A stretch of 64,000 nucleotides of DNA from Escherichia coli (GTDB lineage: Bacteria > Pseudomonadota > Gammaproteobacteria > Enterobacterales > Enterobacteriaceae), in NCBI RefSeq assembly GCF_041886205.1, contig NZ_CP169029.1; one strand, 5' to 3'. Of this stretch, positions 730-9,231 are shown piece by piece. Numbering within the stretch: the first letter of the stretch is position 1; each line of letters begins with the position of its first letter. The position numbers and the translations under genes are program-made. Below the pieces are notes generated by a model. That model had not been told where the DNA came from. It saw only the letters and a list, made by a program, of their open reading frames with translations, and searched no databases.

Positions 730-1896
730 TCACACTGATGGACGCAAACGAACGCGTAACCAGCTGTATCCAATTACCGCCGAAGAGATAGAACCGACCA
801 GGATACCGAGTTTCGCCCAGTTAATCAGTTCTGGATCTACGCTACCAAAGGCCAGGCTGGCAATAAAGATAGACATAGTAAAACCGATACCGCACAGGAT
901 CCCCACCGCCATAATTTGCTGATAAGTCGTTCCCTCAGGCAGATGCGCCAGTTTCAAACGCAGCGCCAACCAGCAGAACAGACTAATCCCCAGCGGTTTG
1001 CCAATCAGCAAACCAGCGATGATCCCCAATGGCAGAATGGAGGTCAAGCCATCCAGCGTGACACCTTGCAGTGAAACGCCAGCATTAGCAAATGCAAACA
1101 GTGGCAAAATCAAATATGCCACCCACGGGTGCAACACATGCTCCAGTCGCTTCGCTGGAGAACGCCCATGCTTCTCTTTCAAAGGAATAAAGAAGCCGAC
1201 AATTACCCCAGCCAGGGTTGCGTGAACCCCCGATTTCAACACTGCAGTCCACAACACCACGCCAACCAGAATATAGACGCCCGTGCGGCGTACACCACAC
1301 AGATTCAATACCGCGAGTACCGCAATTGCTACAGCCGCGACGCCAAGAGAGGCCATCGATAAGTCATTAGTGTAGAACAATGCGATGATAATGATGGCCC
1401 CAAGATCGTCGATAATAGCCAGAGCCATCAAAAAGATCTTCAGCGCTAACGGAACACGACTTCCCAATAGCGCCAGCACACCAAGTGCAAAAGCAATGTC
1501 AGTCGCCGCCGGGATCGCCCACCCTTCGCGGGTAATCGGATCGGCATAGTTAAAAGCCAGATAGAGTAATGCCGGCACAATCATCCCACCAATAGCGGCG
1601 ATAACTGGAAATGCGGCCTGGCGTAAGCTGGCTAGCGATCCTTGCATCAGTTCACGTTTAACTTCCAGACCGACTAACAGGAAAAATACCGCCATCAGCG
1701 CGTCATTTATCCATAACAGCATGTTTTTGTTGATTTCGAGTGAACCAACCCGGAGCTGAACCGGCGTCTCCAGAAAGTCGTGATACCATCCACTGGTTGC
1801 GCCGCTGTTGGCCATCATCATCGCCAGGATAGCGGCAATGATAAGAATAATGCCTCCCGAGGCATCACTGCTAAAGAATCGATGCAGATGTTTCAC
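730..1896 (-). CDS. nhaA: Na+/H+ antiporter NhaA
   Basis: 388-aa [44 protein letters not shown]...; initiator at 1896 is GTG on the minus strand; polytopic membrane protein. Confidence 0.96.
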
Positions 1897-2147
1897 TTTT
1901 TATTTCTCTTTCAGGTGAATAGATCGTTTTTACTATTTTACCCCGCACGAATCATCGTTAAAATCAGATTATAGTGTAGGAATAATTCGTTTTTTACGAA
2001 CCAATGAAGGATTTGTGCCATCAGCGATGAGATGAGTTTTTGACGGCTGTAAGCGCTAACGGGTGACCCTAAGCCCTGATAATCATAGCTTAAGGTCAGG
2101 ATTTCTGAGGGATTAATTAGGAAAAGTAATAATAAAATCGCACTATG

Positions 2148-3392
2148 CTATAGCTGTTTATTCCAGAGATGCTTGAAAATATCTAATGTTGAGACAACAT
2201 TGGCAGGCGACATTCGGTTTAATGAGGGTAGAAAGGGATGAGCCTCCAGGAAGTTGATAAAACGAGTCGCGCTTGCCAACGTCGAATTCCGCATTTCATT
2301 TGCTTTCTTGTTTCCTGTAAGGTTACAAACAGCCATTGAATAATCACGGGCGGAAAATGCACGCCAGACATTATTTCTCACGCCACCACTCAAAAATAAC
2401 CGCGGCGGCGTATCATAATGAGTCGTTTTCTCGCCGCGCTCTTTCACAAAGGAAATATGGCACCGGCCTTGATGAATATGCTGCAAATTAGCCATCAGAC
2501 AACCGCCTAATATAAAGCACTCGTTATCAAGGTAGTGTTGAATATTTATAGAATATCCTTCAGTCAGTACTCTAACCAGTTCAAAATGGCGATACGCCGG
2601 AAGAACCGGTTTCACCAGCATCCCCGGATCGTTTTGATGTAATATCGCCCGACCATAATCAATATCAAATAAGGTATCACGCCGCATAGTAAGTAACTCC
2701 TTGCGTTGTACGTGATGCGCCAGTGTACCTGGAGACAAACGCTCTTCATAACTTGATGCATACTGATAATGCGACTCTACCGCTGATGGAGAATAATTTG
2801 TTGAAATAGCGACAACTCTACCGCTTTGTTCTTCTGTGGTAACAAGACTATAAAGATAGTTATTACTACCGTTAAACTTTACGCGAAAAGCACGGGTAGC
2901 TAGAGAAATATCAGAAGCAGAAGAGTACTGGCGACTTTCTTTATAGTTTACTTCCCGGGCTAGTTTTATCAATTCACGGTTAAGCCCTGTGCTATTAAGA
3001 AGTAATAATTTACGGATATCAGCAAGTGAAGCACCTTGCTCAATCATCAATGCTAACTGTGTTCTTCGCGGCGTTGTATTTACATGATCCAGAGTGATAA
3101 ATGTTCTGGAACAATGATGACAATACATTCTCCTCTGCCCTTGAGCTGAATAACCATACTTTTTCAGAGATGTGCTTCCGCAAGCTGAACATTGTGGAAC
3201 CAACCCTCGCCATGAATGATTAACACGATTACGATAAATATTAAGAGATCGTTCAGATATCACAGGAAAAAAGTAACCGCATTCCCGACATAAAATATTT
3301 TTGCCTTGTGCAATATAATCCTGGCTATTCAACAATCCCAAGTTTTTGCATCCTGGTGTTTTGCAACAATCAACATTTACGTTGGTAAACAT
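2148..3392 (-). CDS. Cys-rich hypothetical protein with N-terminal zinc-ribbon motifs (C-x2-C...C-x2-C, InsA/IS1595-like) and a possible HTH; function unknown
   Basis: ORF track 2148..3428 (426 aa); internal ATG at 3392 (MFTNVNVDCCKTPGC...) has a GGGAG Shine-Dalgarno 5 nt upstream so is the preferred start; motifs CRECG and CSACG-x20-CHHCSRTF; AT-rich codon usage. Confidence 0.6.
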   Translation of the reverse strand: MFTNVNVDCCKTPGCKNLGLLNSQDYIAQGKNILCRECGYFFPVISERSLNIYRNRVNHSWRGLVPQCSACGSTSLKKYGYSAQGQRRMYCHHCSRTFITLDHVNTTPRRTQLALMIEQGASLADIRKLLLLNSTGLNRELIKLAREVNYKESRQYSSASDISLATRAFRVKFNGSNNYLYSLVTTEEQSGRVVAISTNYSPSAVESHYQYASSYEERLSPGTLAHHVQRKELLTMRRDTLFDIDYGRAILHQNDPGMLVKPVLPAYRHFELVRVLTEGYSINIQHYLDNECFILGGCLMANLQHIHQGRCHISFVKERGEKTTHYDTPPRLFLSGGVRNNVWRAFSARDYSMAVCNLTGNKKANEMRNSTLASATRFINFLEAHPFLPSLNRMSPANVVSTLDIFKHLWNKQL

Positions 3393-3429
3393 ATTCACTC
3401 CCTGCGAATATCCGGATATTATCGTCATA

Positions 3430-3473
3430 CGTCAAAGAAAAGAACCTGATTCAATGTGTAACATTGAATCAGG
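3430..3473 (-). terminator. Probable intrinsic terminator downstream of the sulfatase gene
   Basis: Perfect 12-bp inverted repeat cctgattcaatg/cattgaatcagg (3445-3473) with 5-nt loop, followed on the minus strand by TTCTTTTCTTT. Confidence 0.5.
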
Positions 3474-3521
3474 CGGGCATAGCCCTGAAAGGCATACATT
3501 ACATTTATTATGGTTATCAGA

Positions 3522-5015
3522 TTAGCCCCAGGTTACCGCTTCCGGTTTATCACCTCTGGCTTTCATTAATGAATCATTATCAATATCGGCTTTATATTTT
3601 AAGAACTTACCATACATTTGTTTTTCAATGTCTGGATTTTTACCTATCTGATTAATAGTCTCAAAACGATCGGTTTTGAGGTTATATAGGTACTTTGGCT
3701 TATTGTTACGATCGATGATCATTTTCCAGTCACCATCACGTATCGCCCATTCGTCGGTTGGATCATCCTGGAATGGCATGTCAATTCCGAAGATTAATGG
3801 CTTTTCACGTTTTAGCGCTTTGTTCTCAAGGACAGGAACCAACGATTCGCCATCAAAAGTGCGGTCCGTCGGTAATTTGAAGTTCATCATTTTCGCCAGC
3901 GTAGGCATCCAGTCCAGACCATAAACTGGCGTATCTGAAACCATTCCCTTTGGAAGATGTTTACCGTATTTAATAATTGCCGGAACACGGATGCCGCCTT
4001 CCCAAAGATTATCCTTGCGACCACGTAATCCATCAGTTTCACCTGCCAAATTCAGTTCATAAACTTTGCGTGCTTCACGCGTTACTGGGCCGTTGTCACT
4101 GGTAAAAATTATGATGGTGTTATCTTCTTCACCCATCGCTTTAATTTTATCCAGCACTTTTCCAACCTGAGCATCCAGATAACTGATGTTGGCATAATAT
4201 TCTCCTGTACCACGCCAGGGTTTATCCGCCCAGTCGCCATAAAATAAATCAGGATGCTGCTTCTGATATTCGCTCATATATTGTGAGTACATGTCGAGGT
4301 ATTTTTTGGGCGAAGCCAGGGGACTATGTACTTCGGTAAAAGCGACATAAAGGAAGAAAGGCTTACTGTCCTTTTTGTTATCCAACCAGTTAACAACTTC
4401 CGAACTGACATACTCACCACTCATTTTATCGGAACGTGGCGTTGGTTGCCCGTTACGCAACCAACCCGTTGGATAGACCATGCCAAAACGGGGACGCTCC
4501 TTCGCATTATCCAGAGTAGCGTCGGTAACAAAACCCGCCGTATTAACCAGTGAGTAATCAAAGCCCATATCTTTTGCCTGCGGCTGATCGGTGCGATCGC
4601 CGCCTGCATTCAGATGCAGCTTACCCATCATGGCCGTGTCGTACCCTTGCGCTTTGAGTAGATTAGCAATCGTGAGTTCATTACGCCCTAATGCCACATC
4701 TTTTCCCGTTGGGATCCATGAGCGTATGCCAGTACGAAATGGCATCCGCCCTGTTAATAGTCCCGCCCGTGAAGGAGAACTTAAGGGGGCAGGTGCATAG
4801 TAGTCGGTAAATTTGACGCCTTCCCGGGCAAGCCTGTCTATATTGGGCGTTTTAACGATCTGATGTCCATATGTTGCCAAATCACCATACCCTAAATCAT
4901 CCGCCATAATGATGACTAAATTGGGTTGTTTAGTCTCGGCGGCTACGGCTGGATTAAAAGCATTCCCTGTGCAAACTGCAAGGCCGATCAAACTGGCCAT
5001 TAATGTTTTCTGCAT
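3522..5015 (-). CDS. Secreted sulfatase (arylsulfatase family), Ser-type active-site motif
   Basis: ORF track 3522..5051; ATG at 5015 with AGGA 6 nt upstream gives MQKTLMASLIGLAVCTGNAFNPAVAAE signal peptide; N-terminal DDLGYGD metal-binding motif and SSPSRAGLLTGR formylglycine signature with Ser in the modified position. Confidence 0.85.
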   Translation of the reverse strand: MQKTLMASLIGLAVCTGNAFNPAVAAETKQPNLVIIMADDLGYGDLATYGHQIVKTPNIDRLAREGVKFTDYYAPAPLSSPSRAGLLTGRMPFRTGIRSWIPTGKDVALGRNELTIANLLKAQGYDTAMMGKLHLNAGGDRTDQPQAKDMGFDYSLVNTAGFVTDATLDNAKERPRFGMVYPTGWLRNGQPTPRSDKMSGEYVSSEVVNWLDNKKDSKPFFLYVAFTEVHSPLASPKKYLDMYSQYMSEYQKQHPDLFYGDWADKPWRGTGEYYANISYLDAQVGKVLDKIKAMGEEDNTIIIFTSDNGPVTREARKVYELNLAGETDGLRGRKDNLWEGGIRVPAIIKYGKHLPKGMVSDTPVYGLDWMPTLAKMMNFKLPTDRTFDGESLVPVLENKALKREKPLIFGIDMPFQDDPTDEWAIRDGDWKMIIDRNNKPKYLYNLKTDRFETINQIGKNPDIEKQMYGKFLKYKADIDNDSLMKARGDKPEAVTWG

Positions 5016-5034
5016 AATTATTCCTTTATGAAAA

Positions 5035-5796
5035 TTAGAAATCATAACCAAGCATATAAATCATTTGATCGCCAAAACCATCGTAGCCTAACTTATTATC
5101 GAAATAACGCCACGTCACACTGGCTTTCCAGCGAGGACAGAACTTCCAGGCAACTGTTAAACCGCCATTTAGCCCATTCCGACCAAATTGTTGTTCCGCA
5201 TAGGCATCATTTCTGTCCAGTTCTATTTCATTCCAGTTAGATAAAACAAATTTTTCGTCAAATAACGTAAAAGGTAATACTGCTGTCCAACCAACAACAT
5301 AACCATTCCAGCCATTTGTTTGACCATATTTGGCTGAGACATAGTCTCCAGATTGATTATGTAATCCTATATACGGTTTAAAAAATCCCCACGAACCATT
5401 CCAGCCGAGGTAGCCCAAGCCATAAAACATATCAAGATCGTCACCCCATGAGTTATCCCATTGACCATAGATCTTGCCAAAGAAAGTCATATCGGAGTCA
5501 AAAAGTCTGACATGTGTCATAGCAGAAACGGTATGATTACGCCCCGCTACGGCATGGTTAAGCACATTGCTTTCATAAAATGAGTAAAACTCGGCTTCTT
5601 TAAAATTCACACCAAAGTCCGCAGTCACTTTCCATACTTCACCACGGTGAGTGTTAACGAAGCCACTATTCCAGTCAGCATAACCTGCATTTATTGAGCC
5701 AAAGGAACCTTTATATTCTAATGAAGAATATGCAGGAAGATGATAGATAATCGTTGTCAGGGCACACGCAATAAGAAGCCGTCTTTTGGCAGACAT
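5035..5796 (-). CDS. Tsx/OmpK-family outer-membrane channel (nucleoside-channel-like beta-barrel)
   Basis: 253-aa ORF with signal peptide MSAKRRLLIACALTTIIYHLPAYS, aromatic-rich alternating beta-strand pattern, C-terminal ...MLGYDF resembling the Tsx C-terminus; GGAGA RBS upstream of ATG at 5796. Confidence 0.75.
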   Translation of the reverse strand: MSAKRRLLIACALTTIIYHLPAYSSLEYKGSFGSINAGYADWNSGFVNTHRGEVWKVTADFGVNFKEAEFYSFYESNVLNHAVAGRNHTVSAMTHVRLFDSDMTFFGKIYGQWDNSWGDDLDMFYGLGYLGWNGSWGFFKPYIGLHNQSGDYVSAKYGQTNGWNGYVVGWTAVLPFTLFDEKFVLSNWNEIELDRNDAYAEQQFGRNGLNGGLTVAWKFCPRWKASVTWRYFDNKLGYDGFGDQMIYMLGYDF

Positions 5797-6304
5797 ATAA
5801 TATGCTCTCCATTCATTGTTTTTATGTTTCCATAGTATTCAATACATCAGATAATTCATTTTGATTAAGAACGACCCAGAAAGTATATTTAAAGGTGAAT
5901 AGCAAAGCGTGATGAAGATCGCATATTACTTTTACACCAGGGTGTGGAGGTATCGTGTTTCAAAAAGTGTGTCTATTTTAAATATCACTCATTGATTTAT
6001 AGACATTTTTTCCTTATAAAAAACACTAAATTCTGTACAAGAATATTTTGTATCTTCTATTACTTTCTCCAGTAATAACTCACCATCCAGTCATAACTTA
6101 AATCTGCTTGTTCATAATCTTAATTTTTGTAAATGAAAAGGCACATAAGAGTTAAAATAAACAATGAACTAAAGATTAATTATGCAAAAATGCGAGGCGT
6201 CTTCAGGATTAGAATCGATAAAACAGAATGGGTTAAAAAGAGCGATATAATAGCGGCGGGTGCTTGAGGCTATCTGTCTCAGGCATTAGCTGAACGGCAG
6301 ATAG

Positions 6305-6359
6305 AGAAAAGCCCCGAGTGATATTTTACTATCAACCCGAGGCCCCCTATATGCTGAAC
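6305..6359 (-). ncRNA. sokC: sokC antisense RNA of the hokC/mokC type I toxin-antitoxin locus (approximate)
   Basis: Placed by position: antisense to the mokC translation-initiation region as in hok/sok loci; not independently delimited from sequence. Confidence 0.4.
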
Positions 6360-6560
6360 ACATGTAGAGTGCCTCTTACTGACCGTAAGGTCAAGGAGAA
6401 GAGAGCAATGAAGCAGCATAAGGCGATGATTGTCGCCCTGATCGTCATCTGTATCACCGCCGTAGTGGCGGCGCTGGTAACGAGAAAAGACCTCTGTGAG
6501 GTTCACATCCGAACTGGCCAGACGGAGGTTGCTGTTTTCACGGCTTACGAATCCGAGTAA
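6351..6560 (+). CDS. mokC: MokC, overlapping regulatory reading frame of hokC
   Basis: MLNTCRVPLTDRKVKEKRAMKQHKAM... within ORF 6318..6560; shares its stop with hokC. Confidence 0.85.
   Translation: MLNTCRVPLTDRKVKEKRAMKQHKAMIVALIVICITAVVAALVTRKDLCEVHIRTGQTEVAVFTAYESE
6408..6560 (+). CDS. hokC: HokC (Gef) small membrane toxin, type I TA
   Basis: 50-aa MKQHKAMIVALIVICITAVVAALVTRKDLCEVHIRTGQTEVAVFTAYESE. Confidence 0.92.
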   Translation: MKQHKAMIVALIVICITAVVAALVTRKDLCEVHIRTGQTEVAVFTAYESE

Positions 6561-6571
6561 GAGCAACGGCG

Positions 6572-6583
6572 GGGAGTGATCCC
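6572..6583. repeat. Target-site duplication flanking IS186 (left copy)
   Basis: gggagtgatccc immediately outside the left IS end; identical 12-mer at 7921..7932; joined flanks give GGGG-N6-CCCC. Confidence 0.75.
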
Positions 6584-7920
6584 ATAAGCGCTAACTTAAG
6601 GGTTGTGGTATTACGCCTGATATGATTTAACGTGCCGATGAATTACTCTCACGATAACTGGTCAGCAATTCTGGCCCATATTGGTAAGCCCGAAGAACTG
6701 GATACTTCGGCACGTAATGCCGGGGCTCTAACCCGCCGCCGCGAAATTCGTGATGCTGCAACTCTGCTACGTCTGGGGCTGGCTTACGGCCCCGGGGGGA
6801 TGTCATTACGTGAAGTCACTGCATGGGCTCAGCTCCATGACGTTGCAACATTATCTGACGTGGCTCTCCTGAAGCGGCTGCGGAATGCCGCCGACTGGTT
6901 TGGCATACTTGCCGCACAAACACTTGCTGTACGCGCCGCAGTTACGGGTTGTACAAGCGGAAAGAGATTGCGTCTTGTCGATGGAACAGCAATCAGTGCG
7001 CCCGGGGGCGGCAGCGCTGAATGGCGACTACATATGGGATATGATCCTCATACCTGTCAGTTCACTGATTTTGAGCTAACCGACAGCAGAGACGCTGAAC
7101 GGCTGGACCGATTTGCGCAAACGGCAGACGAGATACGCATTGCTGACCGGGGATTCGGTTCGCGTCCCGAATGTATCCGCTCACTTGCTTTTGGAGAAGC
7201 TGATTATATCGTCCGGGTTCACTGGCGAGGATTGCGCTGGTTAACTGCAGAAGGAATGCGCTTTGACATGATGGGTTTTCTGCGCGGGCTGGATTGCGGT
7301 AAGAACGGTGAAACCACTGTAATGATAGGCAATTCAGGTAATAAAAAAGCCGGAGCTCCCTTTCCGGCACGTCTCATTGCCGTATCACTTCCTCCCGAAA
7401 AAGCATTAATCAGTAAAACCCGACTGCTCAGCGAGAATCGTCGAAAAGGACGAGTAGTTCAGGCGGAAACGCTGGAAGCAGCGGGCCATGTGCTATTGCT
7501 AACATCATTACCGGAAGATGAATATTCAGCAGAGCAAGTGGCTGATTGTTACCGTCTGCGATGGCAAATTGAACTGGCTTTTAAGCGGCTCAAAAGTTTG
7601 CTGCACCTGGATGCTTTGCGTGCAAAGGAACCTGAACTCGCGAAAGCGTGGATATTTGCTAATCTACTCGCCGCATTTTTAATTGACGACATAATCCAGC
7701 CATCGCTGGATTTCCCCCCCAGAAGTGCCGGATCCGAAAAGAAGAACTAACTCGTTGTGGAGAATAACAAAAATGGTCATCTGGAGCTTACAGGTGGCCA
7801 TTCGTGGGACAGTATCCCTGACAGCCTACAAAACGCAATTGAAGAACGCGAGGCATCGTCTTAACGAGGCACCGAGGCGTCGCATTCTTCAGATGGTTCA
7901 ACCCTTAAGTTAGCGCTTAT
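6584..7920 (+). mobile_element. IS186 insertion sequence (IS4 family)
   Basis: Terminal inverted repeats ataagcgctaacttaagggttg (left) / caacccttaagttagcgcttat (right); about 1337 bp; encodes InsL; ends uncertain by 1-2 bp. Confidence 0.9.
6638..7750 (+). CDS. insL: IS186 transposase InsL
   Basis: ORF 6632..7750; MNYSHDNWSAILAHIGKPEELDTSARNAGALTRRREIRDAATLLRLG... about 370 aa. Confidence 0.93.
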   Translation: MNYSHDNWSAILAHIGKPEELDTSARNAGALTRRREIRDAATLLRLGLAYGPGGMSLREVTAWAQLHDVATLSDVALLKRLRNAADWFGILAAQTLAVRAAVTGCTSGKRLRLVDGTAISAPGGGSAEWRLHMGYDPHTCQFTDFELTDSRDAERLDRFAQTADEIRIADRGFGSRPECIRSLAFGEADYIVRVHWRGLRWLTAEGMRFDMMGFLRGLDCGKNGETTVMIGNSGNKKAGAPFPARLIAVSLPPEKALISKTRLLSENRRKGRVVQAETLEAAGHVLLLTSLPEDEYSAEQVADCYRLRWQIELAFKRLKSLLHLDALRAKEPELAKAWIFANLLAAFLIDDIIQPSLDFPPRSAGSEKKN

Positions 7921-7932
7921 GGGAGTGATCCC
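7921..7932. repeat. Target-site duplication flanking IS186 (right copy)
   Basis: gggagtgatccc identical to 6572..6583. Confidence 0.75.
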
Positions 7933-7983
7933 CGCCACTTTTCAGGTGCTCGCATATCTTCAACGCACCCTAATTTTACCCAA

Positions 7984-8009
7984 GCCTGCCCACGGGCAGG
8001 CTTTTGGGG
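7984..8009. terminator. GC-rich hairpin between IS186 and dnaJ, probable terminator
   Basis: gcctgcc-cac-gggcaggc stem-loop followed by TTTT on the plus strand; just downstream of the dnaJ stop on the minus strand. Confidence 0.4.
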
Positions 8010-8012
8010 AGG

Positions 8013-9143
8013 TTAGCGGGTCAGGTCGTCAAAAAACTTCTTCACACCATCAAAGAAGCTCTTTGAGCGCGGGCTGTTGTGCTCACCGGTTGGGCCACCG
8101 AAGCTTTCTTGCAGCTCTTGCAGCAACTGTTTCTGCTTCTCGTTCAGGCCTACCGGTGTTTCGACGACAACGCGGCACAGCAAATCACCCTGTGCGCCAC
8201 CGCGGACAGACTTGACGCCTTTACCGCGCATACGGAAAAGCTTACCGGTCTGGGTTTCGCCAGGCACTTTCAGTTTGACGCGACCATCAAGGGTCGGTAC
8301 TTCGATTTCGCCACCCAGCGCCGCCATAGCGAAGTTGATCGGGACTTCGCAATAGAGGTTGTTGCCTTCACGCTCGAAAATCGGGTGCTGTTTAACCTGA
8401 ACCTGAACGTACAGATCGCCTGCCGGTGCGCCATGCTCGCCCGCTTCACCTTCGCCCGCAAGACGGATGCGGTCTCCAGTGTCCACCCCTGCCGGGATTT
8501 TAACGGACAGCGTTTTGCTGCGCTCAACACGACCATGACCATGACATTTGTTGCACGGATCTTTGATCAGCGTACCGCGGCCCTGACAGTGTGGACAGGT
8601 CTGCTGTACAGCGAAGAATCCCTGGCGCATCTGCACCTGACCAGAACCATGACAGGTCGGACAGGTCTGCGGCTGTGTACCTGGTTTTGCACCGCTACCG
8701 TGGCAAACGTCACACTCTTCCAGAGTCGGAATGCGGATCTCTTTGGTCACGCCACGTACAGCTTCTTCGAGGGTGAGCTCCATGTTATAGCGTAAATCAG
8801 CACCGCGCGCCGCACGTTGACGACCACGTCCGCCGCCAAAAATATCGCCGAAAACGTCACCAAAAATATCGCTGAAGTCTGCGCCGCCGCCAAAACCGCC
8901 GCCGCCCATGCCACCTTGCTCAAACGCAGCATGACCATACTGATCGTATGCCGCACGTTTTTGCGAGTCGGTCAGAACTTCATAAGCTTCCTTGATCTCT
9001 TTAAATTTCGCCTCGGCCTCTTTGTCACCCTGGTTACGGTCCGGGTGGTATTTCATGGCCAGGCGTTTGTAGGCCTTTTTGATTTCACGCTCTTCCGCTG
9101 TTTTGGAAACGCCTAAAATCTCGTAATAATCTTGCTTAGCCAT
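8013..9143 (-). CDS. dnaJ: Chaperone DnaJ (Hsp40)
   Basis: [40 protein letters not shown]..., J domain, G/F region, four CxxCxGxG zinc repeats; track ORF extended upstream to 9173. Confidence 0.97.
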
Positions 9144-9231
9144 CTTTTTTAAATTGCCCCTAGATGAATGCACGGGCGGAGAGGAAATTCCCCTTCGCCC
9201 GTGTCAGTATAATTACCCGTTTATAGGGCGA

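Follow-up and report, generated by a model that had tools for sequence, protein, structure and literature searches.

Within the window, the 64,000-nucleotide stretch of an Escherichia coli chromosome analyzed here, the gene at positions 5035..5796 (minus strand) encodes a 253-residue outer-membrane β-barrel protein of the Tsx/OmpK family, and falls in a sub-branch of that family that is strictly linked to sulfatase genes. The gene itself is already annotated, its PGAP counterpart in other E. coli genomes being WP_001274825.1 ('outer membrane protein OmpK'). What is new here is the sulfatase-linked sub-branch, which appears to be undescribed; a literature search (OmpK/Tsx with sulfatase, the dnaJ-nhaA sulfatase, Salmonella STM0034-38) found nothing describing the link. 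Tsx-family channels pass nucleosides and related small molecules. Given its constant sulfatase neighbor, the channel described here most likely admits a small sulfated compound, and we favor, with some reserve, a role as a passive, substrate-selective pore through which a small sulfate ester reaches the periplasmic sulfatase. If true, this would extend the range of the Tsx family beyond nucleosides.

The island gene encodes a Tsx/OmpK-family channel

The open reading frame, which begins with an ATG located 8 nt downstream of a ribosome-binding site read directly in the sequence (GGAGAG, 5805..5810, minus strand), agrees in every detail with what had first been noticed in the DNA. The original prediction spoke of a signal peptide, an aromatic-rich, barrel-like protein and a Tsx-like YDF end, and all three are borne out. 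The N-terminus, MSAKRRLLIACALTTIIYHLPAYS/SLEYKG, presents a basic n-region, a hydrophobic core and an A-x-S cleavage site, with cleavage predicted after A-Y-S24. The Sec signal peptide (codons 1-24; 5725..5796, minus strand) contains a helix at residues 3-18 of the structural model, ahead of the first strand, and its cleavage site aligns with AQA/LE and VHA/LE in relatives. Phenylalanine, tryptophan and tyrosine make up 21% of the mature channel, as compared with 19.5% of Tsx and 4-9% of cytoplasmic or inner-membrane neighbors, and the C-terminus (...MLGYDF, for ...VGYNF in Tsx) supplies the aromatic outer-membrane insertion signal that, with the signal peptide, is found among the sequence features of the protein. 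The gene is far beyond what chance would produce, as judged from its Pfam E-value (5.8e-14), its full-length homologues in many genera and a dN/dS of 0.076.

Two further features of the protein sequence deserve mention. A lipobox-like L-I-A-C occurs at residues 8-11, but a lipoprotein was rejected on the grounds that the preceding hydrophobic stretch comprises merely four residues, that the Cys is not conserved and that relatives align to the signal peptidase I site. In addition, the window allele carries Cys221 (KFCPRWK; codon 5134-5136) where Tyr is present in the other E. coli alleles read and in most relatives overall. Truncated, frameshifted channel alleles are also present in E. coli and Salmonella protein clusters (P0049, P0052, P0060, P0062), all of them broken at about codons 136-139; the equivalent region of the window (~5376-5384, codons 137-139) is a T6A3 run on the minus strand, and at least P0052 fits the loss of one T. 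These alleles could be due to homopolymer sequencing error, or to recurrent inactivation or phase variation.

Assignment to the Tsx/OmpK channel family (Pfam PF03502, TC 1.B.10) comes first from the Pfam Channel_Tsx model, which scores 52.9 bits against a gathering threshold of 27.2 and aligns to residues 105-253 only. In the precomputed hits, all full-length homologues carry PF03502, and the same model scores YfeN at 150 bits and Tsx at 292 bits. By BLASTP, the channel aligns end to end with YfeN (MG1655 b2408) at 31% identity (E-value 2e-31, 248 columns). The sole NCBIfam match is PRK11528 (NF008574), a 254-position 'hypothetical protein' equivalog model that we infer to represent YfeN because the lengths match. 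The channel scores 123.1 bits against its cutoff of 282 and is therefore a paralogue, not an orthologue, of YfeN; the K-12 yfeN gene, moreover, sits elsewhere.

Direct sequence routes to Tsx failed. A phmmer search of the PDB with the channel returned no match, a profile of 33 homologues recovered no Tsx at E-values up to 1 and only NanC (E-value 0.12), and hhalign against the verified Tsx gave a probability of 1.2%. What ties the channel to Tsx is hence the family HMM, together with YfeN and the fold, and the missing sequence match reflects divergence within the family and does not exclude membership. The AlphaFold2 model (pLDDT 94, pTM 0.83) shows the signal-peptide helix followed by 12 strands, and its top structural match is Tsx, as befits a predicted monomeric 12-stranded barrel with the Tsx fold. 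Membership in the KdgM/NanC family was rejected, for want of a Pfam KdgM/NanC match and with structural scores below those of Tsx. The HMM search and barrel topology analysis proposed along with the prediction of a Tsx/OmpK-like channel thus both uphold it, with a Pfam score above the curated threshold, 31% identity to YfeN, a 12-stranded model closest to Tsx and a predicted location that is not cytoplasmic. We regard the identification of a real Tsx/OmpK-family outer-membrane barrel as sound, and it is already public in RefSeq/PGAP.

A sub-branch of the family paired with sulfatases

The distribution of sulfatase genes around this channel was surveyed in a collection with one genome per species, in which channel loci were scored by tblastn for neighboring genes. 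A sulfatase lies at most 2.2 kb from the channel in 21 of 21 loci at 56% identity or above, and in none of 30 loci at 47% or below. The usual module comprises the channel, the sulfatase, an anaerobic sulfatase maturase (anSME, radical-SAM/SPASM) and a zinc-ribbon protein of about 415 residues; the maturase is present in 15 of the 21 linked loci and the zinc-ribbon protein in 20, the single locus without it being a truncated contig. The sulfatase is likewise next door in all the close relatives read, namely those of an Escherichia-like lineage (82%), Citrobacter (79%), a food-metagenome enterobacterium (70%), Salmonella Poona (56%) and a Vibrio (50%), and a sulfatase gene also comes after the channel in two deep relatives (41 and 37% identity). 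One apparent exception, a Vibrio gene without sulfatase (L067, 47% best-segment identity), was set aside as a frameshifted Vibrio-type gene in an MFS-ApbA-DJ-1 context.

The linked loci follow two layouts. In type A, the channel gene lies ahead of the sulfatase with a spacer of 18-21 nt; in type B, channel and sulfatase operon are divergently oriented, and a gene for a UshA-like 5'-nucleotidase comes after the channel. The persistence of the pairing through this rearrangement is good evidence of functional coupling. In a neighbor-joining tree, 13 sulfatase-linked sequences form one split with a bootstrap of 1.00. Several residues are fixed in the linked clade and different elsewhere, among them K29, R51, K56, R97, K218 and N77, the last being Glu in most other members; the window channel has K29, R51, K56, N77 and R97 and belongs to the clade, and the 37% relative has many of the clade residues. 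With side-chain orientation inferred from hydrophobic alternation in the sequence, the five basic residues and the E-to-N change at position 77 raise the inferred lumen charge by about +3 over that of the rest of the family. The core of the linked clade has an inferred net lumen charge of about -1 to +2, and the 41 and 37% relatives have +3 and +6, respectively, against mostly -1 to -6 elsewhere in the family, where two non-linked relatives are positive as well. As weak evidence, these charges would fit an anionic substrate.

Several relatives outside the linked branch adjoin genes of nucleoside catabolism, such as nucleoside hydrolase and CNT transporter genes, PNP, deoA or xapAB. In Klebsiella, the genes around a 36%-identical relative encode PNP, a nucleoside hydrolase and a CNT nucleoside transporter; in six enterobacterial loci at 35-37%, a nucleoside hydrolase and a CNT transporter come directly downstream; and four marine or Campylobacteraceae loci have deoA or PNP within about 4.4 kb, a fifth (Ferrimonas) having a CNT transporter. 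These contexts, together with membership in the Tsx family itself, the deo operon adjoining one Vibrio locus (L009) and the UshA-like 5'-nucleotidase genes that follow the channel in type B loci and occur in a 37% metagenomic locus (L018), are what would be expected of a plain nucleoside channel of the Tsx or YfeN kind, with adjacency to the sulfatase a historical accident of the island. We consider this fairly unlikely. An accident of one island would not readily account for a pairing maintained across all 21 species-level loci, two deep branches and two gene arrangements, nor for the single clade, with its own conserved residues, that the linked sequences form. The 21 linked census loci yielded no nucleoside transporter, phosphorylase or hydrolase, and E. 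coli already has tsx and yfeN. The original prediction of a dedicated entry route for the substrate of the sulfatase hence gains strong, if indirect, support from a channel-sulfatase pairing strictly conserved across genera.

A UshA-like metallophosphatase/5'-nucleotidase follows the channel in the type B loci L007 (6861-8432), L034, L035, L037 and L039, and another follows the sulfatase in the 37% locus L018 (3375-4910), with 32% identity between the two branches. This partner hints at a nucleotide-like or phosphosulfate substrate.

Operon organization and accessory island

The channel stop codon (TAA, 5037-5035) and the sulfatase start codon (ATG, 5015-5013) are separated by an intercistronic spacer (5016..5034, minus strand; TTTTCATAAAGGAATAATT) with an AAGGA ribosome-binding site at 5022-5026. 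The 19-bp spacer with a ribosome-binding site noted at the outset is therefore exact to the nucleotide, and spacers of 18-21 nt are kept in relatives. A terminator scan revealed no terminator-like site between the two genes. Directly 3' of the sulfatase stop codon, by contrast, a hairpin with a 14-bp stem followed by a U-rich tract (3444..3474, minus strand; RNA fold z = -4.5) is a candidate terminator or attenuator, and is kept in Citrobacter (L002, 8326-8356), where the upper stem shows compensatory changes and the next gene is a different one, anSME. Because no terminator separates channel and sulfatase and the hairpin lies only past the latter, the main transcription unit is probably the channel-sulfatase pair. 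Upstream of the channel, a scan of the coding strand for promoters detected no consensus sigma-70 promoter, and a repeat search disclosed nothing more than a single weak inverted repeat. The leader (388 bp, 5797-6184) is AT-rich and may depend on an activator.

A candidate for regulating the module is the 414-residue zinc-ribbon/HTH protein encoded at 2148..3392 (minus strand; PGAP coordinates), which matches the NCBIfam IS1/IS1595 Zn-binding domain and has a pair of zinc ribbons at its N-terminus, an HTH resembling that of IS1 InsA and a conserved domain at its C-terminus. Its AlphaFold2 model (pLDDT 78) had no significant match among PDB folds and showed weak RNase-H-like/transposase similarity. 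These weak similarities suggest a domesticated transposase or a regulator.

The window covers the E. coli chromosome around dnaK-dnaJ, in reverse orientation with respect to MG1655, and the gene order runs from nhaA (730-1896, minus strand) through three extra genes to the hokC/mokC-sok locus, IS186, dnaJ and dnaK. As delimited by alignment to MG1655 and by GC content, the extra genes occupy a 4,048-bp accessory island (2137..6184) between nhaA and hokC/sokC, which has a GC content of 41%, against 51% for the window, and stands in place of 122 bp of K-12. In transcription order, the channel leads the three island genes, and was rightly called the first gene of the insert. At the right edge, the island adjoins the hokC/mokC type I toxin-antitoxin locus, with its Rfam sok antitoxin RNA (6258-6410, plus strand, 122 bits); the nearby IS186 (~6568-7936) is inserted at the dnaJ-hokC site, as it is in MG1655, but in the opposite orientation.

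The complete island was found in 1,271 of 5,426 complete E. coli genomes, among them the B2 strains IHE3034, LF82 and ABU 83972. The channel gene occurs in 1,273 genomes, with identities of at least 99% in 40, 95-99% in 297, 90-95% in 844 and 80-90% in 92. Synonymous divergence between the window (730-9173) and IHE3034 (L016) is uneven, with dS values of 0.09 for the channel, 0.48 for the sulfatase, 0.91 for the zinc-ribbon protein, 0.30 for nhaA and 0.09 for dnaJ. This unevenness suggests that the island is a recombination mosaic of old, divergent alleles.

The Escherichia sulfatase and its missing maturase

The second gene of the island (3522..5015, minus strand) encodes a 497-residue periplasmic S1 sulfatase with a Sec signal peptide (Pfam Sulfatase, 199 bits). 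It is near-identical to PDB 3ED4 (1109 bits), an unpublished structural-genomics entry described as 'putative arylsulfatase from E. coli'. The enzyme had been described as secreted, but it is periplasmic. Its nearest characterized relatives of solved structure are steryl-sulfatase, GalNAc-6-sulfatases, carrageenan sulfatases and arylsulfatase A, with E-values of ~1e-48 to 1e-54, and homology does not disclose the substrate.

In the relatives, the sulfatase is accompanied by a gene of about 1.2 kb for a maturase of the TIGR03942 sulfatase_rSAM family (521 bits against a cutoff of 349). In the window, this gene is missing at a junction located at 3413..3434 (minus strand), and the blastn alignment to Citrobacter skips exactly the maturase, passing from 3435 to 3412 in the window and from 8365 to 9584 in L002. 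Complete E. coli genomes contain no copy of this maturase, their only match being aslB, with 66% identity over 27% of the query. The catalytic position of the sulfatase has changed as well. Every non-Escherichia locus has Cys (TGT) at the formylglycine position, within a C-S-P-S-R motif, whereas all the Escherichia versions (E. coli, E. albertii, E. whittamii and Escherichia sp. MOD1) have Ser (AGT), which in the window is Ser79 (4779-4781, minus strand) in an S-S-P-S-R motif. Four non-Escherichia loci without anSME (L025, L034 and L040 in the census and the metagenomic L018) keep Cys. The window hence holds not the complete module, with cognate anSME and Cys-type motif, but a reduced, Escherichia-specific form of it.

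The clean deletion of anSME and the Cys79Ser change, both confined to Escherichia, might be read as the marks of a decaying remnant, with a dead sulfatase and a channel that has no current substrate role and persists as a surface protein or phage receptor. The island is absent from K-12 and from ~77% of complete E. coli genomes, frameshifted channel alleles occur at the T6A3 run, and both Tsx and OmpK are known phage receptors. Nonetheless, decay appears distinctly unlikely. All three genes are whole and annotated as functional in the listed E. coli genomes, and 1,271 genomes have a full-length copy. Furthermore, when two E. coli alleles that both lack anSME and carry Ser79 are compared, dN/dS comes to 0.076 (channel), 0.031 (sulfatase) and 0.10 (zinc-ribbon protein), with dS of up to 0.9, so that all three genes have been constrained since the change. 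Lastly, sulfatase maturation in E. coli is incompletely understood, with aslB, ydeM and a suspected third system to be considered, and active Ser-type sulfatases are reported to have been obtained from E. coli without an added maturase (PMC8379841). We infer that the E. coli module, though reduced, still functions.

Proposed function

In the proposed mechanism, the channel would be exported by Sec, with its signal peptide cut after residue 24, and inserted by BAM through the C-terminal aromatic signal (...GYDF), to form a monomeric, 12-stranded diffusion barrel with a narrow pore. Channel and sulfatase, the latter starting 19 nt downstream, would be translated from one mRNA. The Sec signal peptide of the sulfatase implies that its substrate must cross the outer membrane, and the pore would let in a small sulfate ester for hydrolysis in the periplasm by the sulfatase. 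The most likely substrate would be a flat aryl or steroid-type sulfate. The link of the sub-branch to sulfatases predates the split between Enterobacteriaceae and Vibrio; its sister branches are linked to nucleoside catabolism. Channel activity, co-transcription and the nature of the substrate are all deduced here from genomic and predicted structural data.

Host aryl or steroid sulfates are candidate substrates; alternatively, the UshA-like partner suggests a sulfated nucleoside or nucleotide, and the arylsulfotransferase genes found near some of the channels hint at phenolic sulfates. Those arylsulfotransferase genes (PF05935), which flank the module in 6 of the 21 census loci and in L004, L007 and L009, would fit a channel serving a wider periplasmic sulfo-conjugate module, for the phenolic acceptors or donors of an arylsulfotransferase or for product release, and not the sulfatase in particular. 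We consider this very improbable, given that the arylsulfotransferase is missing from most loci, including the window, while the sulfatase is always there. Beyond the favored role as a pore for the substrate of the sulfatase, we advance more tentatively, and as a possibility that falls somewhat short of an even chance, that the sub-branch represents a new substrate class of the Tsx family devoted to small sulfate esters and that the Ser-type sulfatase of Escherichia is matured by a non-cognate host system.

To our knowledge, the outer-membrane route by which phenol, steroid and bile-acid sulfates enter gut Enterobacteriaceae is not established. A channel gene within a sulfatase operon, on an island carried by roughly a quarter of complete E. 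coli genomes, provides a concrete candidate for the entry of sulfated host or dietary metabolites. On the other hand, specialists will find little surprise in a channel gene beside catabolic genes, which is a familiar pattern, or in a family that is already annotated. The Escherichia sulfatase, with its maturase deleted, Ser at the catalytic position and strong purifying selection, offers a natural test case for maturation without a cognate enzyme.

Comparison with known systems

Among known channels, E. coli Tsx (PDB 1TLW, 1TLY and 1TLZ) shares about 14-15% identity with the channel in structural alignments, without detectable sequence similarity. The mature channel is about 40 residues shorter than Tsx, and its genomic partner is a sulfatase rather than nucleoside genes. 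The closest K-12 paralogue is YfeN, a putative outer membrane porin of nearly equal length, but its neighbors are the xanthosine genes xapA-xapB, as opposed to the sulfatase, and YfeN falls outside the sulfatase-linked clade, as judged from the position of a YfeN-like sequence (P0098) in the tree. With the OmpK of Vibrio, the channel shares a RefSeq product name and a Pfam family, the name being a family label and not a statement of orthology; the Vibrio-type relatives that were found reach only 32-36% identity and have unrelated surroundings, with the gene order MFS, channel, ApbA and DJ-1. Vibrio OmpK is the receptor of vibriophage KVP40, and Tsx that of phage T6 and colicin K. NanC and KdgM, which are also 12-stranded channels, for acidic sugars, constitute a separate family, with no Pfam match to the channel and with structural scores lower than that of Tsx.

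Among known sulfatase systems, the closest analogy is with the enterobacterial pairs atsA/atsB of Klebsiella and aslA/aslB and ydeN/ydeM of E. coli, which resemble the arrangement in the relatives of the island module, where a radical-SAM anSME gene comes after that of a periplasmic S1 sulfatase. We know of no dedicated outer-membrane channel gene in any of these pairs. The module described here departs from the atsA/atsB type in that Escherichia has dispensed with the maturase, and in that a channel gene and a zinc-ribbon protein of about 415 residues are constant partners of the sulfatase.
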